Source of the DNA: Patescibacteria group bacterium
Lineage (GTDB): Bacteria > Patescibacteriota > JABMPQ01
DNA: 64,000 bases
Assembly: GCA_018818965.1 (NCBI GenBank)
Contig: JAHJQX010000010.1
Location: forward strand, 4,579-68,578
Direction: 5' to 3'
Shown piece after piece: positions 12,991-56,871 of the stretch; the first letter of the stretch is position 1; every line of letters starts with the position of its first letter. The notes under the pieces are model-generated. The model saw only the letters and a list, made by a program, of their open reading frames with translations, was not told the DNA's origin and did no database searches. The position numbers and the translations under genes were made by a program.

Positions 12991-13027
12991 AAAAACTACC
13001 CCACATAAAACAAGGGTAGTTTTTTAT
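12991..13027. terminator. bidirectional intrinsic terminator between convergent genes
   Basis: Stem CTACCC (12996-13001) pairs with GGGTAG (13014-13019). An A-run lies 5' and TTTTTTT 3' (13020-13026). Confidence 0.6.
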
Positions 13028-13035
13028 TAGTATGC

Positions 13036-13317: not shown

Positions 13318-13359
13318 TTATTTTTTTATTTAGGTGTTCATTAGTTAGTTTATGGAATG

Positions 13360-22916: not shown

Positions 22917-23329
22917 ATTTTTATTTTTTTAATTAGTTTTGATGATTTATATATCTCCGGCTTATACGATCTTGCTCGTATTATTTTAATATTTTGGTTG
23001 CTTCCCTTAATATATCTTTCCAACTCACCGACAAACTTCCGCTGATCATAGCCTAAACAAATTATAGCTGGCTGGCGCTCACGGATTATTTGTAATTTAT
23101 CACCTCCCGACTGAGCAGCTATTACCTCATCAACTATTCCTTGTTTCTCAATCTCGGCCATCCGCTCAGTTTGTTTATGTATTGGATATTCGCCTTTGAT
23201 TGTCTTTACCGTCTCATCGTGAGCTACCACCACCGTTAGCTGATCACCATGCTCCTTGGCTTGGCGGAAAAAATCTAGATGACCCAGATGAAGAATATCA
23301 AAGGTGCCGAAGACCATTATTTTAATCAT
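22913..23329 (-). CDS. HxGH-motif nucleotidyltransferase (cytidylyltransferase-like; RibL/TagD-type)
   Basis: 138 aa. MVFGTFDILHLGHLDFFRQAK... carries the (T/H)xGH signature. Resembles glycerol-3-P cytidylyltransferase and the archaeal-type FAD synthetase. Confidence 0.7.
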   Translation of the reverse strand: MIKIMVFGTFDILHLGHLDFFRQAKEHGDQLTVVVAHDETVKTIKGEYPIHKQTERMAEIEKQGIVDEVIAAQSGGDKLQIIRERQPAIICLGYDQRKFVGELERYIKGSNQNIKIIRARSYKPEIYKSSKLIKKIKI

Positions 23330-25428
23330 AATCCTAACTCATCACTAATTTCCTGCATCGCCTTGAGGCTAAGTTCGATAAACTCATCTAACGATAATCC
23401 TAATTGATCACACTCTCCAATCATCTCACGCGACACTTTAGCGGCAAAAGACTTGTCTTTCATTTTTTTCTTAAGCGACTTGGCTTTGACGTTGGCTAGT
23501 TTTTTGTCTGGATGCACTAGAGCAGAAGCAAAAATCAAACCAGTGATACTCTCTGCACAAGCCACCGCATGATCGAGCTTAGTTTGCCGCTCAATCACCT
23601 TATTATATTCATAACTGTGAGCTTGGATAGCGTTGATACCAACTTCAGGAAACTTTTGCGCCCGGAGAATATCAGCTGTTACCTTACCATGCTCGGCTGG
23701 CTTATCTTGAGTCTCCTCCCAATCAAGATCGTGTAGTAAACCTGTTACTGCCCACAACTCCTCGTCCTCACCTAACTTTTTAGCCAAAGCTCGCATAATT
23801 ACTTCCGTCTCGCGGGAGTGAAGAATGTTTTTTTCGTCTTTCAAATGCTCTTTGAGTAGAGCAAACGCATCGTCGCGAGTCAGGGATAAATTAACTTTGG
23901 CCATTTTTTGAGATTTAGTTAGCAGGGTTTTATTTCTATCTGCAGTTGATGTCAGCCGGTGACCGTCGTCACCTTTGGGCTTCATGGTGGGGAACAAGAT
24001 CACTTCTTTGATCGAATTGGTATTGGTAAACAACATTGCCATACGATCAATCCCGATACCAATTCCAGTTACGGGTGGCATTCCATGCTCAATCGCTTCG
24101 ATAAATTCTTCGTCAGTCTGGTGGGCTTCGTCAAAACCAGATTGTTCTTTCTTTTTTTCCTCAACGAAACGTTGACGCAAATCAACCGGATCATTAAGCT
24201 CTGAATAATGATTGCCAGCTTCAGATCCGATAATGAAATGTTCGAAGCGCTCAACAAAACGAGGATCATCGGCGCATTTCTTGGCTAGGGGAGATGTTTC
24301 TACTGGGTAATTGTAAATGATGGTCGGCTGAATTAGTTTCTCCTCCACTTTCTCTTCAAAAATATAAGCAATCATCTCACCTGTGGTCTGGAACATGGCA
24401 AGCTCCTCTTTGTCTAGCCCCAACTTTAAGGCCTTTTCCCTGACCTGGTCACAGCTATCACCGATAGTAAAATCAGCTCCGGTATATTCTTTAATAGACT
24501 CGACCATAGTTAACCGCTTCCAAGGTCGTTCCAGATTAATCTTCTGTCCCTGATATTCAATCTCCGTTCCACCTAGCACTTCTTGAGCCGTCTGCAAATA
24601 GATCTCCTCCACCAAATCCATACTAAACTCATAGTTTTGGTAAGCCGTCATAATTTCTAGCAGAGTAAACTCAGGATTATGACTTAGATCAATGCCTTCA
24701 TTGCGAAAGTCCTTACAAAACTCAAACACTTTCTCAAAACCACCCACTATTAATCTCTTAAGATACAGCTCGTCAGAAATACGCAGATAAAGTGGAATAT
24801 CCAAGGCATTATGATGAGTCTTAAATGGCTTAGCAAAACCGCCACCATAAATCGTTTGCAAAATAGGAGTGTCGACTTCCATATACCCTTTAGTAATCAG
24901 AATCTGCCGAATTTTTTCAATCATGGCGGAACGAAGTTCAAATCTTTTTCTAACTTCCGGATTGACTGCCAAATCCAAATAACGCTTACGAAATCTTTCC
25001 TCGACATCTTTTAAACCATGCCATTTTTCTGGCAATGGCTTTAGGCTCTTAGTGAGAAGGGAATAGTCAGATACTTCGAGAGTCTTTTCGCCCTTCTTAG
25101 TAGTAAATAATTTACCAGTCAGCTGCACAAAATCTCCCATATCAAGACTTGAGAAAGATTTATACTTGTCTTCGCCAAGGATATCTCGTCGTAAATAAGC
25201 TTGGATTCGAGCAGTACCATCTTGCACCTGGACAAAAGTAGATCCCCCATGGGAGCGAATAGCATAAATCCTTCCCACTAAGGATATTTCCCGTCCCTTG
25301 AGCTTAGCAAAATCAGCCAACATTTCCTGGCAAGTGTTTGTCCTTTTGGCTTTAGCCGGATAGGGATTTAATTTTGCCTGCTTAATTTTATTGAGTTTGG
25401 CAAGACGTATTGCTGACTCTTCCGCCAT
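23326..25428 (-). CDS. lysS: lysyl-tRNA synthetase (class II) fused to a C-terminal HD-domain phosphohydrolase
   Basis: 700 aa. Residues 1 to about 500 are a complete LysRS (OB anticodon-binding domain, motifs 1-3, ...GIGIDRMAMLF...VILFPTMKP). Residues about 520-700 carry H...HD...H...D (ILHSRE...LLHDLDW...AHSYE...LDHAV), typical of HD/YqeK-like hydrolases. No stop separates the two parts. Confidence 0.9.
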   Translation of the reverse strand: MAEESAIRLAKLNKIKQAKLNPYPAKAKRTNTCQEMLADFAKLKGREISLVGRIYAIRSHGGSTFVQVQDGTARIQAYLRRDILGEDKYKSFSSLDMGDFVQLTGKLFTTKKGEKTLEVSDYSLLTKSLKPLPEKWHGLKDVEERFRKRYLDLAVNPEVRKRFELRSAMIEKIRQILITKGYMEVDTPILQTIYGGGFAKPFKTHHNALDIPLYLRISDELYLKRLIVGGFEKVFEFCKDFRNEGIDLSHNPEFTLLEIMTAYQNYEFSMDLVEEIYLQTAQEVLGGTEIEYQGQKINLERPWKRLTMVESIKEYTGADFTIGDSCDQVREKALKLGLDKEELAMFQTTGEMIAYIFEEKVEEKLIQPTIIYNYPVETSPLAKKCADDPRFVERFEHFIIGSEAGNHYSELNDPVDLRQRFVEEKKKEQSGFDEAHQTDEEFIEAIEHGMPPVTGIGIGIDRMAMLFTNTNSIKEVILFPTMKPKGDDGHRLTSTADRNKTLLTKSQKMAKVNLSLTRDDAFALLKEHLKDEKNILHSRETEVIMRALAKKLGEDEELWAVTGLLHDLDWEETQDKPAEHGKVTADILRAQKFPEVGINAIQAHSYEYNKVIERQTKLDHAVACAESITGLIFASALVHPDKKLANVKAKSLKKKMKDKSFAAKVSREMIGECDQLGLSLDEFIELSLKAMQEISDELGL

Positions 25429-26149: not shown

Positions 26150-28105
26150 TTACTGTTTATTATCAAAATACCACTCCAAAATCTTTCCGGCAATTGGCAC
26201 CGCTACTTCGCTACCTTCTCCTCCTTCTTCTACCAGAACCGTCACTACTACCTCTGGATTTTCGTAAGGAGCAAAAGTTGTATACCAAGCATGATTATCA
26301 CCGCTGCCGGAATGTTGAGCCGTCCCTGTCTTGCCGGCCGACGATACCGATAAATAATTTAAGGATTTACCTGATCCGGATAATACTGTCTCGCGCATAG
26401 CCCTTTGCACAATCTTAATATTCTCCTGACTAACCAGTCCTTCTTTCATAGAATGAGGGAAATGTTCCTTAATACTATTACTGCTATTATCGACTACCTT
26501 TTGCACCAAATATGGTTGATAGACAACTCCCCCGTTGGCAACGGCAGCCGTCCAGCAAGCTACTTGAAGAGGAGTAGTTAGAACATCTCCCTGGCCAATC
26601 GCCATATGGTAAGTATCGCCTAGGTACCATTCCTCTCCTTTGGTTTCCCCTTTCCAATCGGGAGTGGGAATCAATCCTTTCTTTTCATTGGGTAAATCTA
26701 TGCCTGTAGCCTGACCCAAACCAAATTTTTGATAATACTTTTCTAATTTTTCCGCCCCTAGACCTTCCCGACTTTCATATCCTCCGCCCGCAATGTAAAA
26801 ATAGATATCTGATGACTGGGCAATGGCACTATAAATATCCATCGGGCCCAAACCAGCTAAATTCCAGCCAACGAAATTATAAACAACGTCTGGATTATAT
26901 TTATTGGGCACACTAATCGAGCCAGTATCTTCGATAATGGTGTGCTCATTCACCACCCGTTCCTCGAGAGCAGCGGCAGCCACTACTGGTTTAATAGTTG
27001 ATCCGGGAGGGTAAACACCGTTTATCACCCGGTTGAATAAAGGTTTATCCTCATCATTAATTAGACGTTCGTAATCTTCTGATAATACACCCCCCGTAAA
27101 AATGTTGTTATTATAATCAGGTGTGCTAACCAAAGACAGAACTCGACCACTATCTGGTTCCATTACTACCACTGCTGCTTTATTTGATTGTATTTTCTCT
27201 AGCTCGGCAGCCACTATTTCATTAACTTTCAGCTGCAATTCCCGATCCACAGTTAAAATCAAATCGCTGCCAGCCACTGATTCACTGACCGCTACCACTT
27301 CTTTTACCTTACCGCGGGAATCAACTTCAACTTGCTCTCGGCCGTGCTGACCTCGCAGCTCTGATTCATAATAATTTTCGAGACCACTCTTCCCTAGCCA
27401 GTCAGTTGTCTGATAGTCATCTTCTCCTAATTCGTTTAACTCTTCCTCGGTTATTTTGCCAACATAACCCAAAATGTGGGCAAACGCAGCCGCCTCTTCA
27501 TAGTAACGTCTGGTATTAATTTCAATATCAACACCAGGCCACTGCGCTAATCGCGGTTGGAGAAATAATGCCTTGTCTCGCTCTAAATTACGCTTTATTG
27601 GCACTGGCGTATAGGAACTATAATCTAAATTGTTCTCTACTTCACTAAATTCGTCTTCTCCTATTGCCAAATGCAATTTGACTTTACCTAACACCTCTTG
27701 CCGCTGCTTTTCTTCTTTAGGTAAATCAGCCGGAATAACTAATAAATCAAAACTGGGCTCATTACGTACTAAGATATTTTTATCGGAGTCATAGATTATG
27801 CCCCGAACTGTTTTTTTAATATTTACCCTGAATCTATTTTCAGCAGCTGCTTGCTTATACTCATCCCCAGCGAATACCTGTAGTTGAATTAAACGCAACA
27901 AAAGCACAATAAAGACAGATAAAATGATAGCCGCAAAAATTTTTATCTTGCCATAATCAAACAGGGGGTTAATTGTTCTAACCTCTTGAGCATCCTGCCG
28001 TCCTGTCATCAGAGCTTCGTCCCAATTTTCCATTACCTCATTACTATCGCGATCTATTGTTTTCCCCTCCAAATAGTCAGTGTGAAAGGGATTTTTATTT
28101 GTCAT
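26150..28105 (-). CDS. mrdA: penicillin-binding protein 2 (peptidoglycan D,D-transpeptidase)
   Basis: 651 aa. N-terminal TM, PBP dimerisation domain, and a transpeptidase domain with STIKP, SGN-like and KTGTA motifs. Overlaps mreD by 4 nt. Confidence 0.9.
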   Translation of the reverse strand: MTNKNPFHTDYLEGKTIDRDSNEVMENWDEALMTGRQDAQEVRTINPLFDYGKIKIFAAIILSVFIVLLLRLIQLQVFAGDEYKQAAAENRFRVNIKKTVRGIIYDSDKNILVRNEPSFDLLVIPADLPKEEKQRQEVLGKVKLHLAIGEDEFSEVENNLDYSSYTPVPIKRNLERDKALFLQPRLAQWPGVDIEINTRRYYEEAAAFAHILGYVGKITEEELNELGEDDYQTTDWLGKSGLENYYESELRGQHGREQVEVDSRGKVKEVVAVSESVAGSDLILTVDRELQLKVNEIVAAELEKIQSNKAAVVVMEPDSGRVLSLVSTPDYNNNIFTGGVLSEDYERLINDEDKPLFNRVINGVYPPGSTIKPVVAAAALEERVVNEHTIIEDTGSISVPNKYNPDVVYNFVGWNLAGLGPMDIYSAIAQSSDIYFYIAGGGYESREGLGAEKLEKYYQKFGLGQATGIDLPNEKKGLIPTPDWKGETKGEEWYLGDTYHMAIGQGDVLTTPLQVACWTAAVANGGVVYQPYLVQKVVDNSSNSIKEHFPHSMKEGLVSQENIKIVQRAMRETVLSGSGKSLNYLSVSSAGKTGTAQHSGSGDNHAWYTTFAPYENPEVVVTVLVEEGGEGSEVAVPIAGKILEWYFDNKQ

Positions 28106-28635
28106 AATTTACTAGCCAGACTAGTGGCAAATCCATTAATTATTTTTTGATATTTGGCGATCAGTGGATAAATAATTAACATCAATAACACATTTGCTAC
28201 TGTTCCCAATAGTATTGACCAAAAAACAGTAGTTGATAGACCAATTCCAGTTTCGGCAAAACTGATAAAGCTAAATAACCACGAAAAAAAGTAAATCAAC
28301 CCGTAGTATAAAATGGCTATTAGTCCGCATAGCCAAGTTCGAGTATAGTACTTATTAAAACTGATTGCGGTATTAGAAATTAAATAGAGACTGAGGACTA
28401 TTACTAGTAGAGATATCATGAAAACACTTAATTTGACTGACGAAAAAATATCTAAGAGAACACCGCCGCCAATAGCCCAGAAAAATGCCTCTTGGTAATC
28501 ACCGAGTAGACACCAACAAAATACTACTACCATTATAATACTAGGCAAAAAACCCCGCGTAGAAAAATGAGGCAAAAAAGAAACCTGCAAAATGGCAGCT
28601 ATGAAGACTCCTATTAGAGCAATAAATCTTTTCAC
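28102..28635 (-). CDS. mreD: rod shape-determining protein MreD
   Basis: 177-aa polytopic membrane protein in mreC-mreD-mrdA order, overlapping both neighbours. Confidence 0.75.
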   Translation of the reverse strand: MKRFIALIGVFIAAILQVSFLPHFSTRGFLPSIIMVVVFCWCLLGDYQEAFFWAIGGGVLLDIFSSVKLSVFMISLLVIVLSLYLISNTAISFNKYYTRTWLCGLIAILYYGLIYFFSWLFSFISFAETGIGLSTTVFWSILLGTVANVLLMLIIYPLIAKYQKIINGFATSLASKL

Positions 28636-29438
28636 CAGCTCGTGATTACAAAAATCAAGCGTAAATCCTGGAAATTAAACAAAGGTTTGATTTTGGCTTT
28701 TTGAAATAAAGCATTGTCACTGTTGCTTACCTCCTCTACCTCTCCGAGCAACAACCCACGGGGGAACAATTGTCCAATTCCCGAGGTAGCGACTAAATCA
28801 CCTGGTTTTACTTCTTTGTTTTGCGGAATCATGTCCATTACTAAAGCTAAATTGTGCTCACCAGTAATGATCCCAGTGGCACCCGAGTTGACTACTTCGG
28901 CATTAATTTTACTACGCGAATCTACCACGGGTAGAATACTGGCAGTCTTATCTTCAGTTGCCAATACTTGCCCGATCAAAACACCATCAGATAATACTAC
29001 CGGCATGTCTTGAACAATACCATCGCTGCTGCCCTTATCAATTCCCAAAGAGAAAAATAGATTATTGGGATCACGGCTGATAATAAAAGCAGGGGTCATT
29101 TCTTCTTTTCTTTCCCGAACCAGACTCAATTGCTCGCGCAGCATTTTGTTTTCTCTCGTTAAGGATTTGACCTGGCTTTTACTGACATATAGATTTCTCA
29201 CTTTCTCTTCCAGGGCTTTGTTTTCTTGATCTAGCTGACGAATAGACACTAACAGATGAGAATAAGTTGTTACTCGTTCACCCCAACCATAAAAATAAGA
29301 CTGGACGGGAGCCAGCCCTGCTTTTAAATAGCTCGTTAAAGGAGAAAGAAGACCAGTACTATTTAAAACGACAAATATTACTACCAAAATTACACTGACA
29401 AGTAAAAACAGAGAGCTGTTAATGCTTTTAAATTTCAT
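28632..29438 (-). CDS. mreC: rod shape-determining protein MreC
   Basis: 268 aa. N-terminal TM, coiled coil, then the MreC beta-barrel domain (...GLLLGEVEEV...). Confidence 0.85.
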   Translation of the reverse strand: MKFKSINSSLFLLVSVILVVIFVVLNSTGLLSPLTSYLKAGLAPVQSYFYGWGERVTTYSHLLVSIRQLDQENKALEEKVRNLYVSKSQVKSLTRENKMLREQLSLVRERKEEMTPAFIISRDPNNLFFSLGIDKGSSDGIVQDMPVVLSDGVLIGQVLATEDKTASILPVVDSRSKINAEVVNSGATGIITGEHNLALVMDMIPQNKEVKPGDLVATSGIGQLFPRGLLLGEVEEVSNSDNALFQKAKIKPLFNFQDLRLIFVITSW

Positions 29439-29448
29439 ACGGGCGGTC

Positions 29449-30510
29449 CTATTTCTTTATTATCATATTATCTTCCGAAGAAACCAGGACGTCCTTCAAA
29501 CTATCAATATCCTCTAGAATAATCCCGGTCCCACGAGCGACGCAAGTCAAGGGATCATCAGCCAGAAAAACGGGGATTTTAGTCTGCTCAGTGATTAATT
29601 TATCTAGACCCCGCAATAAAACCCCTCCTCCGGCTAAAACAATTCCCTTACGCATAATATCAGCTACCAGTTCGGGAGGAGTTTCTTCAATTACCATTTT
29701 AATATTATCAACGATTGTATAAACCGATCTGGCAATAGCTTTTCTAATATCTTCATCAAGAGCCTTCACTTCTTTGGGCAAGCCAGTGACAAGGTCACGA
29801 CCCCGCATAATGGTTTGTAAAGGTTTCCTCAGCGGAGTGGCCGATCCAACCGCTATTTTGATTTCTTCAGCGGTACGTTCTCCCAGCAGCAGATTGATTT
29901 CATCACGAGCATATTGAATAATGTTTTCATTCATTTCATCACCAGCCACCCGCAATGACTTTGACACTACCACTCCTCCCAAAGAAATCACCGCAATTTC
30001 CGTGGTACCACCACCAACATCAACAATCATACTACCAGCCGCGTCTTGCACTGGTAAACGAGCTCCGATTGCAGCGGCCATCGGTTCCTCGACTAGAAAT
30101 GTGCGCCGGGCACCAGCGCTCTTGGCTGCATCTTCCACTGCCTTTTTTTCAACCTCGGTTACTCCCGAAGGAATTCCAATCACCACTCGCGGACGGGGCA
30201 ACAAAGAAAAACCACCTTTGTGTACTTTTTCGACAAAATATTTTAACATCTGTTCGGTAATCTCAAAATCAGATACCACCCCATCAACCAAAGGACGACT
30301 AGCTACGATATGAGCGGGTGTTTTCCCTACCATTTTACGAGCCTCACTACCAATCGCTAAAATCTGACCAGTACGTTTATTGATAGCAACTACTGATGGT
30401 TCATTGATAACAATCCCTTCATTGCGAACATAAACCAAGGTATTGGCGGTGCCGAGATCGATACCGATATCTTTAGAAAATGTACCTAAAATGTCACTGA
30501 TTATTGGCAT
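29449..30510 (-). CDS. mreB: rod shape-determining protein MreB (actin homolog)
   Basis: 353 aa. DIGIDLGTANTLVY phosphate-1, DVGGGTTEIAVISLGG phosphate-2 and adenosine motifs. Confidence 0.95.
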   Translation of the reverse strand: MPIISDILGTFSKDIGIDLGTANTLVYVRNEGIVINEPSVVAINKRTGQILAIGSEARKMVGKTPAHIVASRPLVDGVVSDFEITEQMLKYFVEKVHKGGFSLLPRPRVVIGIPSGVTEVEKKAVEDAAKSAGARRTFLVEEPMAAAIGARLPVQDAAGSMIVDVGGGTTEIAVISLGGVVVSKSLRVAGDEMNENIIQYARDEINLLLGERTAEEIKIAVGSATPLRKPLQTIMRGRDLVTGLPKEVKALDEDIRKAIARSVYTIVDNIKMVIEETPPELVADIMRKGIVLAGGGVLLRGLDKLITEQTKIPVFLADDPLTCVARGTGIILEDIDSLKDVLVSSEDNMIIKK

Positions 30511-37701: not shown

Positions 37702-38712
37702 TTATTTTTTTGCTGATAGAACACTGCGCTTGTATGAGTCTAAGTTCTCCAACGCAATTCCGTTACCTTTGGCTACGCAAAGCAATGGATCCTCGGCCAC
37801 ATAACACAAAACACCGATTGATTTAGTAACTAAAGTATCCAGGCCTCGTAACAAAGCTCCCCCACCAGTTAATACTATTCCTTTATCAATGACATCGGCA
37901 GATAATTCTGGTGGAGTTTCTTGCAAGACAGATTTAATCGTTTGCAGCATTTCCCGTAGTTCATTCTTAATCGATTCTGCTACCTCATTAGAACAAATTT
38001 TGATAGTTTGGGGTAAGCCAGACACCATGTCCCGACCTTTAATCTCCATACATTGCTCTTTTTTAACCGGAATAGCCGAACCGATCTTGATTTTGATTTC
38101 TTCGGCCGTTCGGTCGCCAATGGCCAAACCATGTTTTCTTCTAACGTAATCGGTTATGGCTTGATCAAGCTTGTCGCCAGCGATGCGAACAGAACTAGCA
38201 GCTACAATACCACCCAGAGAAATAACAGCGACTTCGGTAGTACCACCACCAATATCAATTACCATGTTACCACTGGATTGAGCAATCGGAATTCCCGCTC
38301 CAATTGCCGCTGCCACTGGCTCTTTGATAACATAGGCTGCTTTAGCTCCAGCTTGGATAGTGGCATCGATCACTGCTCGTCGCTCAGTGCTAGTAATCCC
38401 CGCTGGAATCGAAACCATTACTTCGGGACGAAACATGCGGATATTACCAATTGCTTTAGTAATAAAATATTTAAGCATCGCCTCTGTCACCCGATAGTCA
38501 GCTATCACTCCATCTTTGAGGGGTCGGGAAGCAACGATTGTGTCGGGTGTTTTGCCCAACATCATCTTGGCTTCATTCCCTACCGCTAGAATTGAATTGT
38601 CGTCCATCGAAACTGCCACGACTGAAGGTTCATCAATGACAATTCCCCTGCCAGGGACATATACTAGTGTATTGGCCGTACCCAAATCAATACCAACTTT
38701 CTTAACAAACAT
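37702..38712 (-). CDS. mreB: second MreB-family actin homolog (MreB/Mbl paralog)
   Basis: 336 aa. KVGIDLGTANTLVYV and DIGGGTTEVAVISLGG. Recognisably related to the 29449..30510 copy over its full length but clearly divergent. Confidence 0.9.
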   Translation of the reverse strand: MFVKKVGIDLGTANTLVYVPGRGIVIDEPSVVAVSMDDNSILAVGNEAKMMLGKTPDTIVASRPLKDGVIADYRVTEAMLKYFITKAIGNIRMFRPEVMVSIPAGITSTERRAVIDATIQAGAKAAYVIKEPVAAAIGAGIPIAQSSGNMVIDIGGGTTEVAVISLGGIVAASSVRIAGDKLDQAITDYVRRKHGLAIGDRTAEEIKIKIGSAIPVKKEQCMEIKGRDMVSGLPQTIKICSNEVAESIKNELREMLQTIKSVLQETPPELSADVIDKGIVLTGGGALLRGLDTLVTKSIGVLCYVAEDPLLCVAKGNGIALENLDSYKRSVLSAKK

Positions 38713-40188: not shown

Positions 40189-41604
40189 ATGAAACGTTGG
40201 AAGCGAAAAATATTCTTTATCCTAGCCATTATAATTTTTTTATTGGTCTCGCCTTTAGCCATTCTTTATACCAGTGGCTATCGCTATGATTTTGCTGATA
40301 AATCCCTAAAGAAAATAGGGATGATTATTGTTAAATCGGTACCAGAAGAAGCTGATGTTCATTTAAATGATCAGTATATGACTAATAAAACTCCCTACAA
40401 AGAAACTAGTCTTTTCCCTGACACCTACAATATTAAAATTACCAAAGAAGGGTACACTACCTGGGAGAAAAATTTAACAGTAGAATCAAAACTAGTTACT
40501 TGGATTAGTAAAGCTAGGATATTTAAGCTTAAACCGCCTACTCGGATCCTAGTCGAACAACCCCAGATTGCCGATTATTCTCTGGCACCTGATTATAAAA
40601 AGATAGTCCTGACTGTACCACAAGAAGAAGGATCAGAATTATGGCTAGTGAACATTGATGATTTACATCAAGAAAAGTTGTTCCCCTTAGAATCCATTCC
40701 GGTCAATCAGCAGAAAGGCTCTCTGTCAAACATCCGTTGGTCACCGGATAGCCGTAAGGTTCTATTTAACCTCACTACCGGCGATAATACTCATCATTGG
40801 ATTGTTAACACAACAAAGTTGACTGAATCTATATTTTTGCCGAATACTAATCTTCAACAACTAATTTGGGATACCCAGGACGCTGATTTTATTTACTACC
40901 TTGACAATAATAATTTAACTAGTGTCAACTTGGCTCAGCTAAACAAAACTGTCGTCATCGCCCAAAATGTTGTAAGTTACGACCTTGCCTCACGTAGTAT
41001 TTTTTATCTTAAAAGAGAATTAGAGGGAAAAGGACTAGCAATATTCAATATTACTAAAAACCAAAACGAACGAGACTACGAACCATCGCCTATATCACAA
41101 TTGCCCGGTGATAATTATATTCTAAAAGTTTCGCCATCAGAAAAGCTAGCTTTGTTAGCTGACAATAAATCACTTTTCCTTTCTGACGGACAGGAATTTA
41201 AGAAATTAAAGGATCGCGTGGTTGACTTCGATTGGACGGAAAAAAATGACGGCTTAGTATTCTGCACCGAAAATGAAATTTGGTATTATAAAGTAGAGAA
41301 AGATGAAAAATTAAACAGTCATCCTCAGTACAACCTTAATCAGGTCAACCTTTTTACCCGCTACAGTACTAAAATCGATCTAGCGATTTGGCACCCCGAT
41401 GAGGAACATATCATTTTTGCCACCAACAACAAATTATACATCAAGGAATTAGATAGCCGCGATAAAGCTAACAGCGCTGAATTGGCAGTGGATTTCCCCA
41501 GTGATGATCAACAAAAAGTCTGGTTTGATAAGAAAGGGCAGAAGATCTATCACAAAAGCTCCCTGGATAAGCTGGATGCTTTAGTGGAAAAAGAGATATA
41601 CTAG
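40189..41604 (+). CDS. PEGA-domain / beta-propeller (TolB-like) membrane-anchored protein
   Basis: 471 aa. N-terminal TM, a PEGA-like beta-sandwich (...ADVHLNDQYMTNKTPYKETSLFPDTYNIKITKEGY...) and repeats resembling a WD40/TolB-like propeller. Confidence 0.55.
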   Translation: MKRWKRKIFFILAIIIFLLVSPLAILYTSGYRYDFADKSLKKIGMIIVKSVPEEADVHLNDQYMTNKTPYKETSLFPDTYNIKITKEGYTTWEKNLTVESKLVTWISKARIFKLKPPTRILVEQPQIADYSLAPDYKKIVLTVPQEEGSELWLVNIDDLHQEKLFPLESIPVNQQKGSLSNIRWSPDSRKVLFNLTTGDNTHHWIVNTTKLTESIFLPNTNLQQLIWDTQDADFIYYLDNNNLTSVNLAQLNKTVVIAQNVVSYDLASRSIFYLKRELEGKGLAIFNITKNQNERDYEPSPISQLPGDNYILKVSPSEKLALLADNKSLFLSDGQEFKKLKDRVVDFDWTEKNDGLVFCTENEIWYYKVEKDEKLNSHPQYNLNQVNLFTRYSTKIDLAIWHPDEEHIIFATNNKLYIKELDSRDKANSAELAVDFPSDDQQKVWFDKKGQKIYHKSSLDKLDALVEKEIY

Positions 41605-46342: not shown

Positions 46343-48211
46343 CTATATAGTATCAGCAATCCTCTCCTTGTCAAGCATAATTTCAATTTTTTTCTCGGTG
46401 CGCGGGATCTTTTTGACCCAGAATGGCCAAAGAGAAATTTCCACGCTAACTATGTTCGGATTGCCCAGAATATGATCACGTGCTTCCTGTTCAGTTTGAC
46501 CCCTAATATCCCTTTTCATCTTCTGCTCATCAAGACGCCAGGCTACTTCTTTACTAATCGACACCTTGATAGTAACTGCTTCTTGGCCATTAAAACCTTG
46601 TTCTACTTTCTCAAAAGCTATACCCTGTTCAATATCATCATTAATAATATATTTCTCGGTGGGAACCAATCGGTCAAATTTACTAGCTAACAACTGTGAA
46701 AAATCGTTTCGGGAAAAAGTTAAGCCGGTAGCCCGGACGCTAACTTTCATGTCAAACTCATCAGCTTCGGTATCGGCCTCAGCGCTGGCTTCAACCTCGG
46801 CGATTTCTTGCTCAAACATCCCGGACGGCAATATTTTATCACCACTTAGATCGTTGGTTAATTTTTTAGTTGCTTCGGCGGCAGCGGTAGTTACTAGTGA
46901 CTGTTTAGCCTCACTCAAATTTTCGGCTGATACTACTTTTACTTTGCGTGAAGAGCCGCCAGTAAACTGAGTTGTACTTTTGCCATAAATGTCACTTTGC
47001 TTACTCTGAGGTAGACTAGCAATAACAAAATTGGCTGGTCCAATATTGTAATCTTCCCCCGCTGTCCCCGCCTCCACTCGCACTTTTACTTGTCCTGGAA
47101 TGGCTTCACCCTCTTCTATGTGTGCTCCCGGTATTACTACTTCTTGCAAAGTAATATAAACCAAGCCATTAGTGATTAGTTGAGACGAGGTTGGTAAAAG
47201 TTGTGCCTCGGAAGAAAAACTATTATGCAAAACTACCTGCCCCCGAGCTTTATCACCAACTTCTTTTTCGCCAGTGGCCTCAAATTTCTTTTTGTCACTT
47301 TTACTTTCAGTTGTTACTAGTTCTCCCGGAATGGTTGCCTTTTCGGTATCAACGTCAGTAATATTTTGACTAATCACCATTTCAAAAGAAGTGGAAAATG
47401 GCTCTGTTTTAGGAACCAAGGATATTTCCGCTTTCGGTAAAACCAAAAAAAACACTAGCCCTAAAACTACCAAACTAATGGTAAAGAAAAGCGAGAAAGA
47501 TTTTATACTCAGGGAAGGCAGAAGAAATACTCGCCCTTTAACTGACTTTTTTGTTTTTCGACGGGAAGAAAGCGGACGCAAGTTAGACTGCTTAGCTTCA
47601 ACGGTAGTAGCTGGATTCGACGAAGGAGCTGCTGGCGGATGTTTGGGTTTGCTCTTTTTCCTGGCTGTAAATATCTTAGTCAAAACAGATAACTCGCTTT
47701 TACTTCTCTCTTTGGGAGAACGGGGCGTGTATTTTTTAGCTTTGCGTTGAAAAAGACGAGAATTATCTAGCCGAATTTCCTGGAACATATTGCTCTCCGA
47801 CTGGTCATCATCTGGTTCATTACCATCTCTAGATTGATAATCTGGGATTGAGTCTATCGGCTCTGCTTCCCCTATTTCTCCAACTTCGTCAGCTGATTCC
47901 GTTTCAGCTTCTGGCTCACTTAGATTTTCAATTTCCCCTGTCTCCCTAGCCAATTTTCCCGACAGCCTGGCTTGAGTAGTCAGACCCGCTTTTTTGGCCA
48001 GGCTCCTTCCGCCCACGTCAGTTGTTACCAAAATAACTTTCTTACCTAAAATATCAGCTTGCCGCCGCAGTAGTTTTAAATTGACAATGCTTTGCACAAT
48101 AGAAGCGCGACGCGGCACTAAAACATAAACAGTGCTACTGCTAGCACTGGCAATTTTATCAACCGCCGAAGTTATTTCTTCGTCTGTTTCTAAATAAACC
48201 TTGTCGCTCAT
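46343..48211 (-). CDS. large hypothetical bitopic membrane protein co-located with ftsA
   Basis: 622 aa. About 95-aa N-terminal cytoplasmic domain (MSDKVYLETDEEITSAVDKIAS...VILVTTDVGGRSLAKKAGL), an acidic then basic disordered linker, one TM (VFLLPSLSIKSFSLFFTISLVVLGLVFFLVLP) and an extracytoplasmic domain of about 370 aa. Starts 7 nt after the ftsA stop. Confidence 0.55.
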   Translation of the reverse strand: MSDKVYLETDEEITSAVDKIASASSSTVYVLVPRRASIVQSIVNLKLLRRQADILGKKVILVTTDVGGRSLAKKAGLTTQARLSGKLARETGEIENLSEPEAETESADEVGEIGEAEPIDSIPDYQSRDGNEPDDDQSESNMFQEIRLDNSRLFQRKAKKYTPRSPKERSKSELSVLTKIFTARKKSKPKHPPAAPSSNPATTVEAKQSNLRPLSSRRKTKKSVKGRVFLLPSLSIKSFSLFFTISLVVLGLVFFLVLPKAEISLVPKTEPFSTSFEMVISQNITDVDTEKATIPGELVTTESKSDKKKFEATGEKEVGDKARGQVVLHNSFSSEAQLLPTSSQLITNGLVYITLQEVVIPGAHIEEGEAIPGQVKVRVEAGTAGEDYNIGPANFVIASLPQSKQSDIYGKSTTQFTGGSSRKVKVVSAENLSEAKQSLVTTAAAEATKKLTNDLSGDKILPSGMFEQEIAEVEASAEADTEADEFDMKVSVRATGLTFSRNDFSQLLASKFDRLVPTEKYIINDDIEQGIAFEKVEQGFNGQEAVTIKVSISKEVAWRLDEQKMKRDIRGQTEQEARDHILGNPNIVSVEISLWPFWVKKIPRTEKKIEIMLDKERIADTI

Positions 48212-48218
48212 ATTTGTT

Positions 48219-49481
48219 TTAAGTCTGCATTATCTTTACCACCTTGCGCAAGGCACGATGCAAAATATCTTCCTCGCCCGCCAGATCAATCGCTAGGTTG
48301 GCCAAAGCCATCGGCGTAATATCCTGTTGATCAACCAGCTTACCAGTTTCATCAACAATATTAACTACCTCTCCTGGTTTAATGAAGGAAACATGGGGTG
48401 GTTTAGCAAAAGGTAAATTTTTGGTCCAAGTCTCTGAAAGTAGAGAAGATTTGATGCCTGGCAACACACTACCACCACCACAGAGAAGAATGCGTGCTGG
48501 TAAAAGATCCAAATTAGAAAATTCGCTGAGAGCCAGTTCTACTCCTGATAACCATACCTTACAATCGGCATCCAAAATATTTTTAACTTTACGTGTTCTC
48601 TGTACTGGTAGAGATCCTTTCGAGTATTCAATTTTTACCTTTTCCGCCTCCGTAAAACTTATCCCCAATTCATTGGAAACACGCTTAGTAAAAGCTCGTC
48701 CTCCTAGGGCAAACATCTTAGTGCCCTCTAGGCCTCCATTTCGTACTACGGCAATATCAGTGGTACCACCACCAACGTCCATAAAAATAGCGTTGAATTC
48801 CACCGAATCTTCCGCTCCGACTGAACGCGCCACCGTGTAAGGCTCAGCGGCAATCGAAAGCAAATCCATATCCAGTTCAGTGGCAATAGTCTGCAAAGCA
48901 CCCAGATGAACCAAGGGAGCATAGGCATTAAAAATTGAAATGGAGACATCCTTGCCCTGAAAACCAAGCGGGTTGGTAATCTTATATCCATCGATTTTAA
49001 CATCGACAATAGCTGCGTTGATCAAGCGGACGTCCATTTCATTGTGGCCTGTCTCCCACGACAACTGCTTGCGTACCTTATCAAAAGCTTTCCATTGTAC
49101 CTTGTGAATAATATTCTTTAGTTCCGACAGGTCTATTTTGGATTTGGGCTTCAGCCGCTCGTAGTGAACAGTGGTAGTGGTTCCCTTAACTAACTCACCC
49201 GCAATCCCCAAGATTACTTGATCGGGTCGAACACCAGCTTGCTCGACAGCTTCATCAAGTGCCTTCTCACTGGTGCGGACCACACCTTCAATATCAGTCA
49301 CCCCACCTGATTGCATATCACCTAGTCGTTGCTGATAACGACCCACTCCCTTGACAATTCCTTTACCTTCCTTGACGTCTATTTCAAAAACCAAAGCCTT
49401 CACGACCTCGGTGCCAACATCAAGGGCAAGAGCATAATGACCCAAGTTCTCCCGATGGATTATTTTATTAAAAATTCCCAT
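48219..49481 (-). CDS. ftsA: cell division protein FtsA (actin-like ATPase; FtsA/PilM family)
   Basis: 420 aa. LALDVGTEVVKALVFE phosphate-1, DVGGGTTDIAVV phosphate-2 and an SHS2-type insert. Confidence 0.75.
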   Translation of the reverse strand: MGIFNKIIHRENLGHYALALDVGTEVVKALVFEIDVKEGKGIVKGVGRYQQRLGDMQSGGVTDIEGVVRTSEKALDEAVEQAGVRPDQVILGIAGELVKGTTTTVHYERLKPKSKIDLSELKNIIHKVQWKAFDKVRKQLSWETGHNEMDVRLINAAIVDVKIDGYKITNPLGFQGKDVSISIFNAYAPLVHLGALQTIATELDMDLLSIAAEPYTVARSVGAEDSVEFNAIFMDVGGGTTDIAVVRNGGLEGTKMFALGGRAFTKRVSNELGISFTEAEKVKIEYSKGSLPVQRTRKVKNILDADCKVWLSGVELALSEFSNLDLLPARILLCGGGSVLPGIKSSLLSETWTKNLPFAKPPHVSFIKPGEVVNIVDETGKLVDQQDITPMALANLAIDLAGEEDILHRALRKVVKIMQT

Positions 49482-49529: not shown

Positions 49530-49565
49530 ATTATACCACATTAGTTGGTAAATAAAAAACCCTAT
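49530..49565 (-). promoter_or_regulatory. putative promoter with extended -10 (TGGTATAAT) for ftsA
   Basis: Minus-strand TGGTATAAT at 49538-49530, with a weak -35 (TTTTTA) 17 nt upstream. About 50 nt upstream of the ftsA ATG. Confidence 0.35.
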
Positions 49566-49584
49566 ATCTGTTGTTGATATAAGG
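49553..49584 (-). terminator. intrinsic terminator after alaS
   Basis: Minus-strand hairpin CCTTATATC...GATATAGGG (49584-49560, one bulge) followed by TTTTTTA (49559-49553). Lies 27 nt after the alaS stop. Confidence 0.5.
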
Positions 49585-51778: not shown

Positions 51779-52861
51779 TTACTTTTTTATTATTCCCCCT
51801 CCTAATAATTCATTCTGATGATAAAAAACTACCGACTGGCCCGGCATGACCGCTCGTTGAGCAGTAACAAGATCAACTCGGTATCCTTGGGGATCAGCAG
51901 TGACCTCAGCCGCCACTGGTTTTGTATTATACCTCACTACCGCCTCCGCCACCAGAGGCCAAGTTGGCTCCTGCCCACTCACCCAATTAATTGTTCTACA
52001 TTTAACAATTCGAGAATATAGTTTTTTATCCTGCGGATTATTAGTAACTACTAAATTATTATTAGGCCAATCTCGATTCACCACATAATATGGCCCCTTA
52101 CCGCCAACCCTTACTCCTTTCCTCTGGCCAACAGTATATGAATGTAGCCCGTGATGCTGGCCAATCACCTTTCCAGATATGTCGACAATTGACCCTTCTT
52201 CCGCCCCACCTAAATGCCTGTCTACAAAATCTTCGACTGTATTACCAACAAAACAGATATCCTGGCTTTCTTTGACAGCAGTTACAGGCAAATCTAGCTG
52301 GAAAGCAATTTTTCTGACTTCACTTTTTTTATATCCTCCTAGGGGAAATAATAAATACTTAAGCTGCTGCTGGGTTAAATTATAGAGAAAATATGATTGA
52401 TCTTTTTTAACATCCTTAGCCTTAAAAAGCTTATATTTACCCTTGCTCTCACCCTTTTCTACGTAGTGCCCCGTCGCCAAACAATCAAATCCCAACTCTC
52501 TGATCTTATCAAGAAGCAAACCAAATTTTATCTCACGGTTACAAACTACGCAAGGATTAGGCGTATGGTGTTGCCGATATTCAGAGAGAAAATTGTCCAC
52601 TACTTGCTCTTTAAATTCCTTTTTAAAATCCAAGGAGTAAAAAGGAATTTTCAACTTGTTCGCCACCGCTCGCACCCGCTTTTCTGCTGCACTAGAGCAA
52701 CAACGATTCTCTCGCCGACAGCCAGACTGATCCTGCCAAAAGTACATAAAAAAACCAGTCACATCACAGTCACTTTTTTGTAACAGAGCAGCGGCCACTG
52801 ATGAATCTACTCCTCCTGACATAGCTACCGCCACCCGAAGTCGACGTTTGTTTCTCATCAT
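51779..52861 (-). CDS. mnmA: tRNA-specific 2-thiouridylase MnmA
   Basis: 360 aa. PP-loop SGGVDSSV, with catalytic Cys residues in the ...CCSS... region and a downstream conserved Cys. Confidence 0.9.
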   Translation of the reverse strand: MMRNKRRLRVAVAMSGGVDSSVAAALLQKSDCDVTGFFMYFWQDQSGCRRENRCCSSAAEKRVRAVANKLKIPFYSLDFKKEFKEQVVDNFLSEYRQHHTPNPCVVCNREIKFGLLLDKIRELGFDCLATGHYVEKGESKGKYKLFKAKDVKKDQSYFLYNLTQQQLKYLLFPLGGYKKSEVRKIAFQLDLPVTAVKESQDICFVGNTVEDFVDRHLGGAEEGSIVDISGKVIGQHHGLHSYTVGQRKGVRVGGKGPYYVVNRDWPNNNLVVTNNPQDKKLYSRIVKCRTINWVSGQEPTWPLVAEAVVRYNTKPVAAEVTADPQGYRVDLVTAQRAVMPGQSVVFYHQNELLGGGIIKK

Positions 52862-54426
52862 TACGAACGCTGGTCGTTAATTTTGACTACTTGGCCAGGT
52901 TTTATTCCGGCTCCTGATTTGCGACTCGGCCGCGAGTCAACTTTAGCTGGTTCGGTAGCTTTTTTCTGGTTACTGTTCCGCCCCCCGAGAGCAGTGGCGA
53001 AAGCTTTTTTAAAAGGCTGGTGAACTTTAGTATCCGGGGATGGTTGCGACGATCTATTAGATGTGATTGATCTATCTTTTGGTCTCCGATCCCTGTCCGC
53101 TGGTGCTCTATCAATCTTTTTCTCCTCGCTCTCTTCCTCCATTACCCCACTCCAACGAGCAATTTTATCTTCAACCACGTCTCGCTTCTTAGCATAACGC
53201 TCGCGCGAGATTTCAACAATTTTATCTCTGTTCCCCTCTGTTTCCCACAAAGGTGGTAGGGTCATAGCCGAAAAAGCCTGACTAGCCACCCCTTCTATCA
53301 TTAACTTTAAATATATGCGGTACTTAGTCAGATTAACTAGGTCAGTTTCGTCGAAAATTGGCTCAAATTCTTTAACTAGAACTTCGGCATCAGCTGCCCC
53401 GATTCGAAAACAGACAATCGTACCGACATTGCCAAACACAGCGTAGCGAACTTCTTCGGCTAGTTGATCAATATACTGGTGAGCCATTATCAAATCTAAG
53501 TGATACTTACGCGCTTCGGACAAGATATCAGCAAAACTTTCCGTCGCAAAATTTTGGAACTCATCGACATAGAGATAAAAATCGGCTCGTTCTTCCTCGG
53601 GAATATCAACTCGACTCATTGCTGCCAACTGGATTTTGGTAATTACCATCGCTCCAAAGAGAGCCGAGGCATCCTCACCTACCCTTCCCTTGGCTAAATT
53701 AAGTAATAGAATCTTCCGGTTATCCATGATGTCACGCATATCCAGAGTTGACTTAGACTGACCCACAATATTTCTGATCAAGGAAATTGACAAGAACTGA
53801 CCAACTTTATTCTGGATTGGAGCAATGGCTTCAGCCATAAATCTATCAGGATACTTCGAGAATTCATCTATCCAAAAAGACTTCACTACTGGATCAGTCA
53901 CCTTCTTGACCACTTTATTGCGAAAAGTCTTGTCCGTCAGCATTTTCATAATACCCAGTAGGGTGCTGCCAGGATAATCCATCAGAGCTAGAATAGTATT
54001 ACGCAGCACATATTCCAAACGCGGACCCCAAGAATCAGCCCAGATCTTTTTAAATACACCCAGCAGTCCTGACGCCACTAAATGCTTGTGATCAGGATCA
54101 ATATTCTCCATCACATTGAAAGCAATTGGATTATTAACGTCGCCAGGATTAAAATAGACAACATCGTTAATTCGGCTGGCGGGAACATAATCTAACATCC
54201 GATCAGCAAACTCACCATGAGGATCAACCACGCAGACTCCATTGCCAGCCTTAATATCAGAAATCACCATGTTCTCCAGCATGGTCGTTTTACCCATACC
54301 CGTTTTTCCGACCACATACATGTGCCGCCGTCGGTCATCAGTTCTAATACCAAACTTTCGACTTTGACCACGGAAATTGGTCTCGCCAAACAGGGTAACG
54401 TCTGATTGGGTTTTGTGTTTTTCCAT
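52861..54426 (-). CDS. TraD/VirD4-like (type IV coupling protein family, FtsK/HerA superfamily) P-loop ATPase, soluble form with a disordered basic C-terminal tail
   Basis: 521 aa. Walker A VVGKTGMGKTT and Walker B LYVDEFQNF. A TraG-D_C-like region (...ARKYHLDLIMAHQYIDQL...). The last roughly 100 aa are low-complexity Arg/Lys/Ser/Pro. Its stop overlaps the mnmA start (TAATGATG). No TM helix of its own. Confidence 0.6.
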   Translation of the reverse strand: MEKHKTQSDVTLFGETNFRGQSRKFGIRTDDRRRHMYVVGKTGMGKTTMLENMVISDIKAGNGVCVVDPHGEFADRMLDYVPASRINDVVYFNPGDVNNPIAFNVMENIDPDHKHLVASGLLGVFKKIWADSWGPRLEYVLRNTILALMDYPGSTLLGIMKMLTDKTFRNKVVKKVTDPVVKSFWIDEFSKYPDRFMAEAIAPIQNKVGQFLSISLIRNIVGQSKSTLDMRDIMDNRKILLLNLAKGRVGEDASALFGAMVITKIQLAAMSRVDIPEEERADFYLYVDEFQNFATESFADILSEARKYHLDLIMAHQYIDQLAEEVRYAVFGNVGTIVCFRIGAADAEVLVKEFEPIFDETDLVNLTKYRIYLKLMIEGVASQAFSAMTLPPLWETEGNRDKIVEISRERYAKKRDVVEDKIARWSGVMEEESEEKKIDRAPADRDRRPKDRSITSNRSSQPSPDTKVHQPFKKAFATALGGRNSNQKKATEPAKVDSRPSRKSGAGIKPGQVVKINDQRS

Positions 54427-55782: not shown

Positions 55783-56871
55783 TTAGGCTAGAGTGTAAGA
55801 TTTCTGTCCAACTTTTTTGAAACGATCAGTATTTTGTAAAGCCAAGGCAACTGTGTTGCGCTTAACAATTCTTTGCTTTAATACTTTGGCGATAATATCT
55901 TCTTTAGGCAGTGGTTGACCAGCTGCTTTGAGAACACTGACTACTACATCCGCTACTGTACCCGAGCTGTATCCCCATTCAGTCAAACCATAAATACCTC
56001 GCCCCACTAGGACAAAACGTTTGTCTTTAATAAGCTCGTTGTGCACTGTTTGGGGAATAGCCTGACGACCGCCAAAATTAGTATTGTTGATTTTGCTAGT
56101 AATTTCCTTAAAGTGAAGAGGTTTATTGCTTTTCTTTAAAACTAAGTAAGCCTTATCTTTAACTCCCTTGGGCACGATCTCATTCCAAGTAACAAACCCC
56201 CATTCAGCGAAGGGGTTTTTGCGCATCTTTTTGCTTAGATTTAGATAAGATTGAATATGTTTAGATTCCGAAATATCACACTTTTCAGCTACCTCGTGCT
56301 GTAAAAGTTGCTCTACAATTCCGAACTCTTTTAGTGGCTTATTATGCTTTTTTAGCACCTCGTGGGCAGCTTCAATCACTTGCTTGGGAATATCAAGCGA
56401 ACCATTTTTTACTGCCCAAGCCTTATAAGTATGCTCGGAATCAGCTAAGTGCTCAAATTTATTGCTCAGATTTAATATAAAATCAACCACGTTAGCATGA
56501 GTTTCAACTGGTGATACAGCCTCGATAAAGGAATCAATCGCGTGGTTATGCTCCATTACCTGACCATGCTTGTCGATAATAGACTCCAGCAAAACTTCGC
56601 ACGGCTTGATTGCTTTAATTTTATTACCTTTCTGTAGATCTTTAAGGGCAGCTGATTCAATCTGACGAACTCGCTCCCTGGTAATTTCGTGGTTGCGGCC
56701 AATCTCTTCTAGTGTTTGGTGACGACTGCCGTCTAAACCAAAACGTTTGACTAAAATATCTTTAGTCCTCGGTTTGAGGCTAGAGATAAGCTGCAGAACA
56801 AAATCTGTTGGCAGCACTTGCAGCCCAGTCACGTTGTTACTAGTAATATTTTTTAGGTTGTTGCTTGTCAT
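55783..56871 (-). CDS. DNA-binding protein with sigma-70 region 4 and two HARE-HTH (RNAP delta/RpoE-like winged helix) domains
   Basis: Residues about 25-80, ...DILVKRFGLDGSRHQTLEEIGRNHEITRERVRQIESAALKDL, match the sigma70 r4.2 consensus. The C-terminal ...HFKEITSKIN...RFVLVGRGIYGLTEWGY and an internal ...NPFAEWGFVTWNEI... resemble HARE-HTH (cf. B. subtilis RpoE DGRFLALSDQTWGLRSWY). Confidence 0.6.
   Translation of the reverse strand: MTSNNLKNITSNNVTGLQVLPTDFVLQLISSLKPRTKDILVKRFGLDGSRHQTLEEIGRNHEITRERVRQIESAALKDLQKGNKIKAIKPCEVLLESIIDKHGQVMEHNHAIDSFIEAVSPVETHANVVDFILNLSNKFEHLADSEHTYKAWAVKNGSLDIPKQVIEAAHEVLKKHNKPLKEFGIVEQLLQHEVAEKCDISESKHIQSYLNLSKKMRKNPFAEWGFVTWNEIVPKGVKDKAYLVLKKSNKPLHFKEITSKINNTNFGGRQAIPQTVHNELIKDKRFVLVGRGIYGLTEWGYSSGTVADVVVSVLKAAGQPLPKEDIIAKVLKQRIVKRNTVALALQNTDRFKKVGQKSYTLA

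Follow-up and report, generated by a model that had tools for sequence, protein, structure and literature searches.

What follows an ftsA-like gene in a bacterium of the Patescibacteria (candidate phyla radiation, CPR), in the place where ftsZ might be expected? The question is raised by a 64,000-nucleotide stretch of DNA (the window) from a Patescibacteria group bacterium (GenBank assembly GCA_018818965.1, contig JAHJQX010000010.1, positions 4,579 to 68,578). Here an FtsA-family gene is followed after 7 nt by a gene for a 622-residue bitopic protein with a single transmembrane (TM) helix. The original prediction, made from the sequence alone, took the upstream gene for ftsA and its follower for a lineage-specific divisome component that occupies the position of ftsZ and links FtsA to the outside of the cell. 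We find that the upstream gene is a Patescibacteria FtsA-family paralog, neither the divisome ftsA nor the pilM of type IV pili (T4P), and that the pair probably connects an actin-like protein in the cytoplasm with an outer domain that resembles a phage baseplate protein.

Architecture of the bitopic protein

The features of the pair, with the method by which each was located (AF2, AlphaFold2; pLDDT, predicted local distance difference test; ORF, open reading frame), are as follows.

49560..49584 (-), terminator-like hairpin with a T-run, between alaS and the FtsA-like gene (consensus scan)
48219..49481 (-), partner gene, for a 420-residue FtsA/PilM-like actin-fold ATPase paralog (PF14450, TIGR01174)
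48212..48218 (-), 7-nt spacer AACAAAT, from the FtsA-like stop codon to the next ATG (sequence read)
46343..48211 (-), gene for the 622-residue bitopic protein (ATG-start ORF)
47957..48211 (-), its cytoplasmic N-domain, residues 1-85 (AF2, pLDDT >90)
47507..47956 (-), disordered cytoplasmic linker, residues 86-235 (pLDDT <50, charge profile)
47441..47506 (-), single TM helix, residues 236-257, N-in / C-out (hydropathy and AF2)
46346..47440 (-), extracytoplasmic domain, residues 258-622 (AF2, folded at 260-615)
46952..47284 (-), β-barrel subdomain, residues ~310-420 (sequence homology to GlxA domain 2 and baseplate J)

The bitopic protein is 100% identical to the NCBI hypothetical protein KJ903_00840 [Patescibacteria group bacterium], which is encoded on a 94,948-bp contig. 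The FtsA-like ORF stops with TAA, which is followed by AACAAAT and then by the ATG of the bitopic protein, so that the ORF and its distance from an FtsA-family gene are confirmed in the sequence. A consensus scan found no terminator-like site between the two genes, and the hairpin at 49560..49584, itself a motif match, suggests that they form their own transcription unit. The last codons of the second gene also carry a sigma-70-like promoter match at 46347..46374 (-) (TTGACA, 16 nt, TG-TACTAT; 10/12). This lies upstream of infA and, as a consensus match, might serve the infA-rpsM operon as a promoter inside the gene.

An AF2 model built on an alignment of 45 relatives has a mean pLDDT of 80.4, with both folded domains above 90. 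Along the chain, residues 1-85 score above 90 and residues 86-230 below 50, a helix spans residues 236-257, and residues 260-615 are well folded. Hydrophobic 19-mers are confined to residues 231-267 (starting at 231-249, with a hydropathy peak of 2.77), and one strong hydrophobic stretch is present in 80/80 relatives. The 30 residues that precede it carry a median net charge of +5 in the family, which fits the positive-inside rule. The linker is acidic at residues ~95-140 and basic at ~150-235; among relatives it is rich in K, E, S and P, and its length varies from 54 to 257 residues, which would be expected of a tether. Model, charge profile and hydropathy thus agree with the structured N-domain, the acidic and basic disordered linker and the one TM helix that had been predicted. 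The periplasmic domain of about 370 residues is likewise seen, as a folded outer domain of 365 residues, although "extracytoplasmic" describes its location better than "periplasmic".

When modelled alone, the N-domain has a pLDDT of 91 and the order β-α-β-α-β-α-β, and the model suggests a (βα)4 unit whose fold is like that of STAS/SpoIIAA. No other portion of the protein is as well conserved: Asn44 is invariant, and Tyr6, Ile13, Thr14, Pro33, Ser41, Val43, Leu47, Asp65 and Ala72 are each conserved in at least 90% of sequences. A profile of this domain finds 4035 representatives at 50% clustering, and in the 150 best of these it lies at or near the N-terminus; those among the 150 that are full-length have ~520-680 residues. 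The sequence search gave no Pfam family, including STAS (PF01740 and PF13466), and no PDB match; weak Pfam matches (PIN_4, YscJ_FliF and others, E > 0.01) were regarded as noise. The equivalent region of SEML1_0655, a protein of Southlakia epibionticum ML1 to which we return below, has independently been labelled "SpoIIaa-like" (Table S2, PMC10633639). The domain differs from SpoIIAA and STAS proteins in lacking any sequence match to them, in being shorter than a full STAS domain, and in that a partner kinase or phosphatase gene is absent from its conserved neighbours. That Ser41 might be equivalent to the phosphoserine of SpoIIAA is conjecture.

The ectodomain is predicted by the model to have a multi-subdomain fold like that of the baseplate J/gp47/gp6 wedge proteins. 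A family profile matches the domain-2 barrel of GlxA (PF21110) with E 3.4e-10 and Mu gp47 with E 9e-5. PF21110 is matched by 19 of the 45 relatives and PF04865, at E <= 0.01, by 7 of the 45; in those members whose PF04865 alignment was inspected it covers positions 20-114 of the 255 in the profile, and three relatives match PHROG_6, "baseplate wedge subunit". The window protein itself has no sequence match in Pfam, NCBIfam, PHROG or PDB, and specifically none to the baseplate J families in Pfam at E <= 1 or in PHROGs at E <= 0.01. It had been called unknown, and it seemed so because, taken alone, it falls under every sequence threshold; the family as a whole does match known domains, so that part of the ectodomain proves to be related to a well-known family, which counts in part against the original prediction. 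The residues invariant in the barrel are Gly314, Gly324, Gly385, Asn389 and Gly419, and a further conserved motif, WPFWV..P, lies at the C-terminal end of the ectodomain. Foldseek aligned the ectodomain over 344-374 columns with wedge and triplex proteins at high root-mean-square deviation, which on the evidence of the models would mean that the same subdomains are present in another mutual arrangement. A Foldseek match to Thermotoga maritima FtsA (probability 0.21) was regarded as spurious.

How far do these resemblances go? With the baseplate J/gp47/T4 gp6 proteins (PF04865, PHROG_6) the barrel is homologous at the profile level, and the likeness of fold extends over most of the ectodomain. 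The bitopic protein differs from them, however, in being membrane-anchored, in having a cytoplasmic domain, and in being chromosomal and vertically conserved outside any tail-gene context. With GlxA of Streptomyces lividans, the sole other cellular protein in which we found this barrel, the common part is only the barrel of ~100 residues (domain 2, PF21110). The bitopic protein lacks the catalytic propeller of GlxA, which is a copper radical oxidase, and the role of the barrel within GlxA is undefined. GlxA is membrane-anchored and extracellular, and it acts in a morphogenetic glucan-synthase complex.

The possibility that the bitopic protein substitutes for FtsZ was rejected, since tubulin features are absent. 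A search for the motif GGG[TS]G[STAG]G in all six frames of the window was empty, as had been stated for the GGGTGTG form, and the protein has no Pfam match and hence no Tubulin or FtsZ_C domain. A CPR FtsZ used as a phmmer query (from locus L087) had no match in the window at E <= 10 or in the related loci at E <= 0.001.

The FtsA-like partner and the canonical ftsA-ftsZ locus

Is the upstream gene the ftsA of the divisome? Its product has intact ATP-binding motifs (LDVGTE, MDVGGGTTD and LCGGGS), matches PF14450 (FtsA) with 50 bits and PF11104 (PilM_2) with 30.8 bits, and has FtsA (7q6f, E 2.6e-16) as its best PDB match. It nevertheless scores far below the levels set for true equivalents, with 108 bits (E 5e-31) against a cut-off of 175.85 for the FtsA equivalog TIGR01174, 60 against 409 for NF007009, and 27 bits against 133 for TIGR01175 (pilM). 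The SHS2_FTSA domain is matched only at E 0.035. A database search returned 7999 significant clusters, the best 120 of them at 65-95% identity, and the names among the relatives listed include "FtsA", "cell division FtsA domain-containing protein" and "PilM".

Direct comparison separates the two kinds of protein clearly. The window protein scores 45 bits against a canonical Saccharibacterial FtsA, compared with 400-880 bits against its own orthologs. Similarly, the N-terminal half of canonical FtsA scores 41-54 bits against the FtsA-like proteins of our loci, whereas these score 290-840 bits against one another. The C-terminal 90 residues of canonical S. epibionticum FtsA, obtained by translating the 3' end of ftsA from a published knockout cassette, have no significant match to the FtsA-like proteins of the loci. 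At their C-termini the FtsA-like proteins share a conserved helix of marked amphipathicity (..ILRRAVKMIQK). Its hydrophobic moment is 0.93 in the window protein, above the 99th percentile of that protein's own 11-mers, and the family median is 0.77. What we take to be the membrane-targeting sequence of E. coli FtsA gives a value of 0.78.

The complete genome of the Saccharibacterium S. epibionticum ML1 (Wang et al. 2023, Cell, PMC10633639) shows where the canonical genes lie. There, SEML1_0174 "FtsA", with an SHS2 domain, is followed by SEML1_0175 "FtsZ", and both are essential (Tables S1-S2, PMC10633639); SEML1_0104 and SEML1_0105 encode the PilM and a PilN-like protein of the pilus locus (PMC10633639). 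The present pair corresponds to neither. In the order SEML1_0658 mnmA, 0657 alaS, 0656, 0655, 0654 ruvX and 0653 mltG (PMC10633639), which matches the arrangement around relatives of the bitopic protein, SEML1_0656 is named "pilus assembly protein PilM", with KEGG K03590 and the FtsA Pfam only, and SEML1_0655 is named "baseplate J/gp47 family protein" (PMC10633639). The two resemble the window pair in gene order and in size (427 / 556 residues), and the domain calls for SEML1_0655 (SpoIIaa-like N-domain, β-barrel, gp6 domain III-like) are like those made here (PMC10633639). Orthology to the window genes is drawn from synteny, annotation and our own Saccharibacterial loci rather than from the SEML1 sequences.

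Other genomes give a similar picture. A search with the 3' end of canonical ftsA found 5 fragments, two of them in ftsA-ftsZ-nrdR and metAP-ftsA contexts; the metagenome contig in the former case runs on from the ftsA fragment into ftsZ and nrdR. In the published annotation of TM7x, "ftsA" (TM7x_02800) is far from ftsZ (TM7x_00785), a position that fits a paralog labelled FtsA by automated pipelines. No FtsZ was found within 10 kb of the pair in 85 family loci. Since the FtsA-like gene is not the divisome ftsA, the premise that its neighbour stands where ftsZ usually lies is void, and with it falls the proposed link to the FtsA of the divisome: the partner belongs to the FtsA family, as a paralog, at a locus that in S. 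epibionticum is separate from ftsA-ftsZ. Beside the FtsA of the divisome and the PilM of T4P, it makes a third actin-fold protein in these bacteria.

Conservation of the pair and its possible function

When each GTDB species was represented by a single genome, relatives of the bitopic protein were found in at least 450 species genomes. The best 80 come from Parcubacteria, Saccharibacteria, Berkelbacteria, Moranbacteria, Doudnabacteria, Portnoybacteria, Azambacteria and CPR2. All named matches are from Patescibacteria/CPR save single metagenome-assembled genomes labelled Bdellovibrionales (one of the best 80) and Bathyarchaeia, labels that are probably binning or labelling errors. The pair is near-universal in Patescibacteria and is absent from described inventories of the divisome, the elongasome and the pilus.

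Linkage was counted in the best 80 loci, of which 77 are informative and the three others end at contig edges. In 75 of the 77, the bitopic gene is preceded on its own strand by the FtsA-like gene, at a distance of no more than 1.7 kb; the two are immediately adjacent in 73 loci, and a small ORF intervenes in two. The gap is at most 10 nt, or the genes overlap, in ~30 of the 80. Both the lineage specificity and the tight linkage of the original prediction are thus upheld, and synteny with the FtsA-family gene is conserved in relatives. Among the other neighbours in the 80 loci, alaS is found in 52 and ruvX and mltG in 40-42, with infA-rpsM-rpsK-rpsD-rpoA-rplQ as the alternative in ~30, as in the window; no consistent third partner gene was found. 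Genes of the mreB-mreC-pbp2 type are present in many loci.

The three parts of the pair evolve at different rates. Measured against the window proteins in 73 loci, the FtsA-like protein has a median identity of 63%, the N-domain one of 44% and the ectodomain one of 28%, and the FtsA-like protein is conserved more than alanyl-tRNA synthetase (AlaRS; mean p-distance 0.44 vs 0.51). When distance matrices are compared, the FtsA-like protein gives r = 0.66 with the N-domain and r = 0.45 with AlaRS; once AlaRS is controlled for, the partial r is 0.59, a value reached by 0 of 500 permutations. This pattern in the sequences is suggestive of co-evolution between the FtsA-like and bitopic proteins, though it is not specific. 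Transposon sequencing (Tn-seq) in S. epibionticum placed SEML1_0655 among the class II essential genes (NE/ES/ES; reads 373 -> 34 -> 24) and showed a milder depletion for SEML1_0656 (NE/NE/GD; reads 2427 -> 660 -> 221; NE, non-essential, ES, essential, GD, growth defect), both in PMC10633639. This depletion suggests a role in fitness. Both genes are flagged as core, Patescibacteria-enriched families, in tables only and with no function proposed (PMC10633639).

How might such a pair work? From the architecture, folds, paralogy, gene linkage and pattern of conservation we infer physical interaction, polymerisation, membrane binding and a cellular process, as parts of a two-gene, membrane-spanning module whose chances we put at about even. 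The FtsA-like protein would bind ATP and, probably in polymeric form, would be held at the cytoplasmic side of the membrane by its amphipathic C-terminal helix. The bitopic protein would dock on it through the STAS-like N-domain, held on a long and flexible polyampholyte tether, and the TM helix would relay a positional or assembly signal outward to the baseplate-wedge-type ectodomain. In phage tails the wedge fold makes the lateral protein contacts that build rings, and the ectodomain may likewise form an oligomeric extracellular scaffold or docking platform in the zone of the wall. The process served would most likely be envelope morphogenesis, growth or division; envelope morphogenesis is suggested because mltG recurs near the pair, because mreB-mreC-pbp2 is present in many loci, and because of the role of GlxA. 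More boldly, the pair may constitute a third dedicated actin-family system, in which an FtsA-like filament, a STAS-like switch and a TM helix connect to an extracellular ring or lattice of domesticated baseplate wedge fold and organise a CPR-specific envelope structure, for example at a budding or division site or a host-contact zone; this extension we offer tentatively, as doubtful but worth stating.

The design has parallels. PilN, FtsN and RodZ are all bitopic: PilM attaches to PilN at its N-terminus, FtsA to the cytoplasmic tail of FtsN, and MreB to the cytoplasmic domain of RodZ. RodZ itself combines a domain folded in the cytoplasm with a disordered linker, a TM helix and a β-rich outer domain. 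In each case, and especially for MreB-RodZ, an actin-fold protein is joined to a single-pass, N-in adaptor with its outer part in the envelope. The present protein differs in that its cytoplasmic module is STAS-like rather than a short peptide or helix-turn-helix domain, and its outer module has the baseplate-wedge fold. It has no homology to PilN, FtsN, RodZ or FtsQ, and no SPOR, POTRA or N-terminal helix-turn-helix domain was found in it; the idea that it is a homolog of PilN, FtsQ, FtsN or RodZ was rejected for want of a domain match.

Could the pair belong to a known system instead? A role at the division site is possible for the pair, since an FtsA-like paralog might yet function at the septum. 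A stronger claim would make the FtsA-like protein the FtsA that the lineage actually uses, with the bitopic protein tying it to the outside in the ftsZ slot; this claim draws on the nearness of the former to FtsA among the actin-fold families, both by TIGR01174 and by its best PDB matches, and on the assignment of K03590 to a Saccharibacterial ortholog. We nevertheless think it quite unlikely, given the sub-threshold equivalog score, the lack of ftsZ at the 85 loci, the essential ftsA-ftsZ that S. epibionticum keeps elsewhere, and the ftsA-ftsZ-nrdR contig. SEML1_0656 moreover tolerates insertions at T0 and T1, whereas ftsA and ftsZ are both scored GD, ES, ES. A PilM-like ATPase with a PilN/PilO-like partner, forming the alignment complex of a T4P, competence or type IV secretion system, is to our minds just as improbable. 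The order of an actin-like gene followed by a bitopic one does resemble pilM-pilN, NCBI names some FtsA-like orthologs "pilus assembly protein PilM", the PilM_2 family is matched, and a TrwB/VirD4-like ATPase is encoded 4.6 kb upstream in the window. The TIGR01175 score is nonetheless a fraction of its cut-off, the bitopic protein matches neither PilN nor PilO and is built quite differently, and pilB, pilC, pilT and pilin genes are absent from the conserved neighbours. S. epibionticum has its separate PilM-PilN pair in the T4P locus, and the TrwB-like gene is present only in the window and in L001, the sole related locus with called genes that far upstream.

The phage-like ectodomain invites two other explanations. 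It could be an adhesin or receptor-binding module for host interaction that the FtsA-like protein merely positions: wedge proteins adjoin receptor-binding proteins in phages, the ectodomain is the fastest-evolving part of the pair, and cultivated CPR bacteria are episymbionts (PMC10633639). This we judge unlikely, for the invariant glycine and asparagine residues of the barrel are kept across the radiation, a sign that the barrel may have a structural function under conservation; the family is found in every CPR class sampled, whatever the habitat, and adhesin-type repeats or lectin folds were not found in the protein. That the gene is a true baseplate wedge gene, a remnant of a prophage or contractile injection system, is what the matches to baseplate J/gp47/gp6 in sequence and fold would imply, as would the name "baseplate J/gp47 family protein" that the NCBI annotation pipeline PGAP gives to some relatives. 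This explanation is effectively refuted, and we consider it extremely improbable. No sheath, tube, hub, gp25 or other phage or tail gene lies nearby in the window or the 80 loci; the flanks in these 80 species are alaS, infA, ribosomal protein genes, ruvX and mltG. The protein has a TM anchor and a cytoplasmic domain, a search of 2.9 million viral contigs with the N-domain motifs found no relative, and the match at the level of sequence is confined to the barrel, over ~90 residues.

A module of FtsA-like and bitopic proteins thus seems to us the best account of the locus, and several observations weigh against it. Two homologs of the bitopic protein, at L021 and L036, have no FtsA-like neighbour, and at L036 there is none within 10 kb upstream. 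The neighbourhood of the pair is mainly housekeeping and carries little information on the process served. The mirror-tree correlation is r = 0.66 for the ectodomain also, so that the N-domain is not singled out, and such correlations can come from shared lineage-specific rates. The loss of insertions in SEML1_0655 may reflect polarity on ruvX, an essential gene that overlaps the 3' end of SEML1_0655 and also shows NE/ES/ES. Finally, canonical ftsA and ftsZ of the source organism were not found in the window, the sole part read (64 kb of the 95-kb contig), and this absence also favours the FtsA-like protein as the working FtsA. L021 and L036 could also serve as natural experiments that show if one gene can work without the other.

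A large part of bacterial diversity belongs to the Patescibacteria, and next to nothing is known of how they build and divide their tiny cells; the fitness signal comes from S. epibionticum, the sole genetically tractable member. If the module works as proposed, it would represent a new means of coupling bacterial actin to the cell exterior, and would show clearly that a fold known from phage baseplates can be taken over as a component of the cellular envelope. The family is already in databases under misleading names, and has been listed, undiscussed, among core families that are enriched in Patescibacteria, and with a Tn-seq phenotype. In the searchable literature on the CPR divisome, baseplate J and Parcubacteria ftsA, we found no account of the pair as a unit, of its separation from divisome and pilus, or of its asymmetric conservation. 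For annotation, the labels "FtsA", "PilM" and "baseplate J/gp47" on this pair in CPR genomes should not be taken to mean divisome, pilus or prophage.

Other genes of the window

Two further actin-fold proteins are encoded in the window, making three with the FtsA-like protein. These are full-length MreB paralogs, at 29449..30510 (-) and 37702..38712 (-), each scoring ~461 bits on PF06723, and one of them heads an mreB-mreC-(177-residue ORF)-PBP2 cluster at 26150..30510. The TrwB/VirD4-like coupling-protein ATPase lies at 52861..54426 (-), directly upstream of mnmA-alaS and in the equal position in L001; it matches PF10412, DUF87 and TraG-D_C and has a long, basic, disordered tail. A 471-residue membrane-anchored protein, with a PEGA domain and a β-propeller-like C-terminal region, is encoded at 40189..41604 (+), and a relative in the 480-residue class is found on the opposite strand after rplM-rpsI in 18 of the 80 related loci.

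Three other genes have unusual domain combinations. At 6574..8610 (+), a 678-residue thiamine pyrophosphate enzyme with PF02775 (TPP_enzyme_C), PF14890 (Intein_splicing) and a faint LAGLIDADG_3 match suggests an intein-containing metabolic enzyme. At 23326..25428 (-), a 700-residue class II tRNA synthetase of the Lys/Asp/Asn type (tRNA-synt_2 and anticodon OB domains) is fused to a C-terminal HD phosphohydrolase. At 55783..56871 (-), a 362-residue protein pairs Sigma70 region 4 with a HARE-HTH domain. Along the window, GC skew and gene orientation switch together at ~13,000-14,000 and ~60,000, the skew being positive before ~13 kb, where genes are on the plus strand, and negative from 14 to 60 kb, where they are on the minus strand; this may reflect a replication landmark or coding-strand bias.

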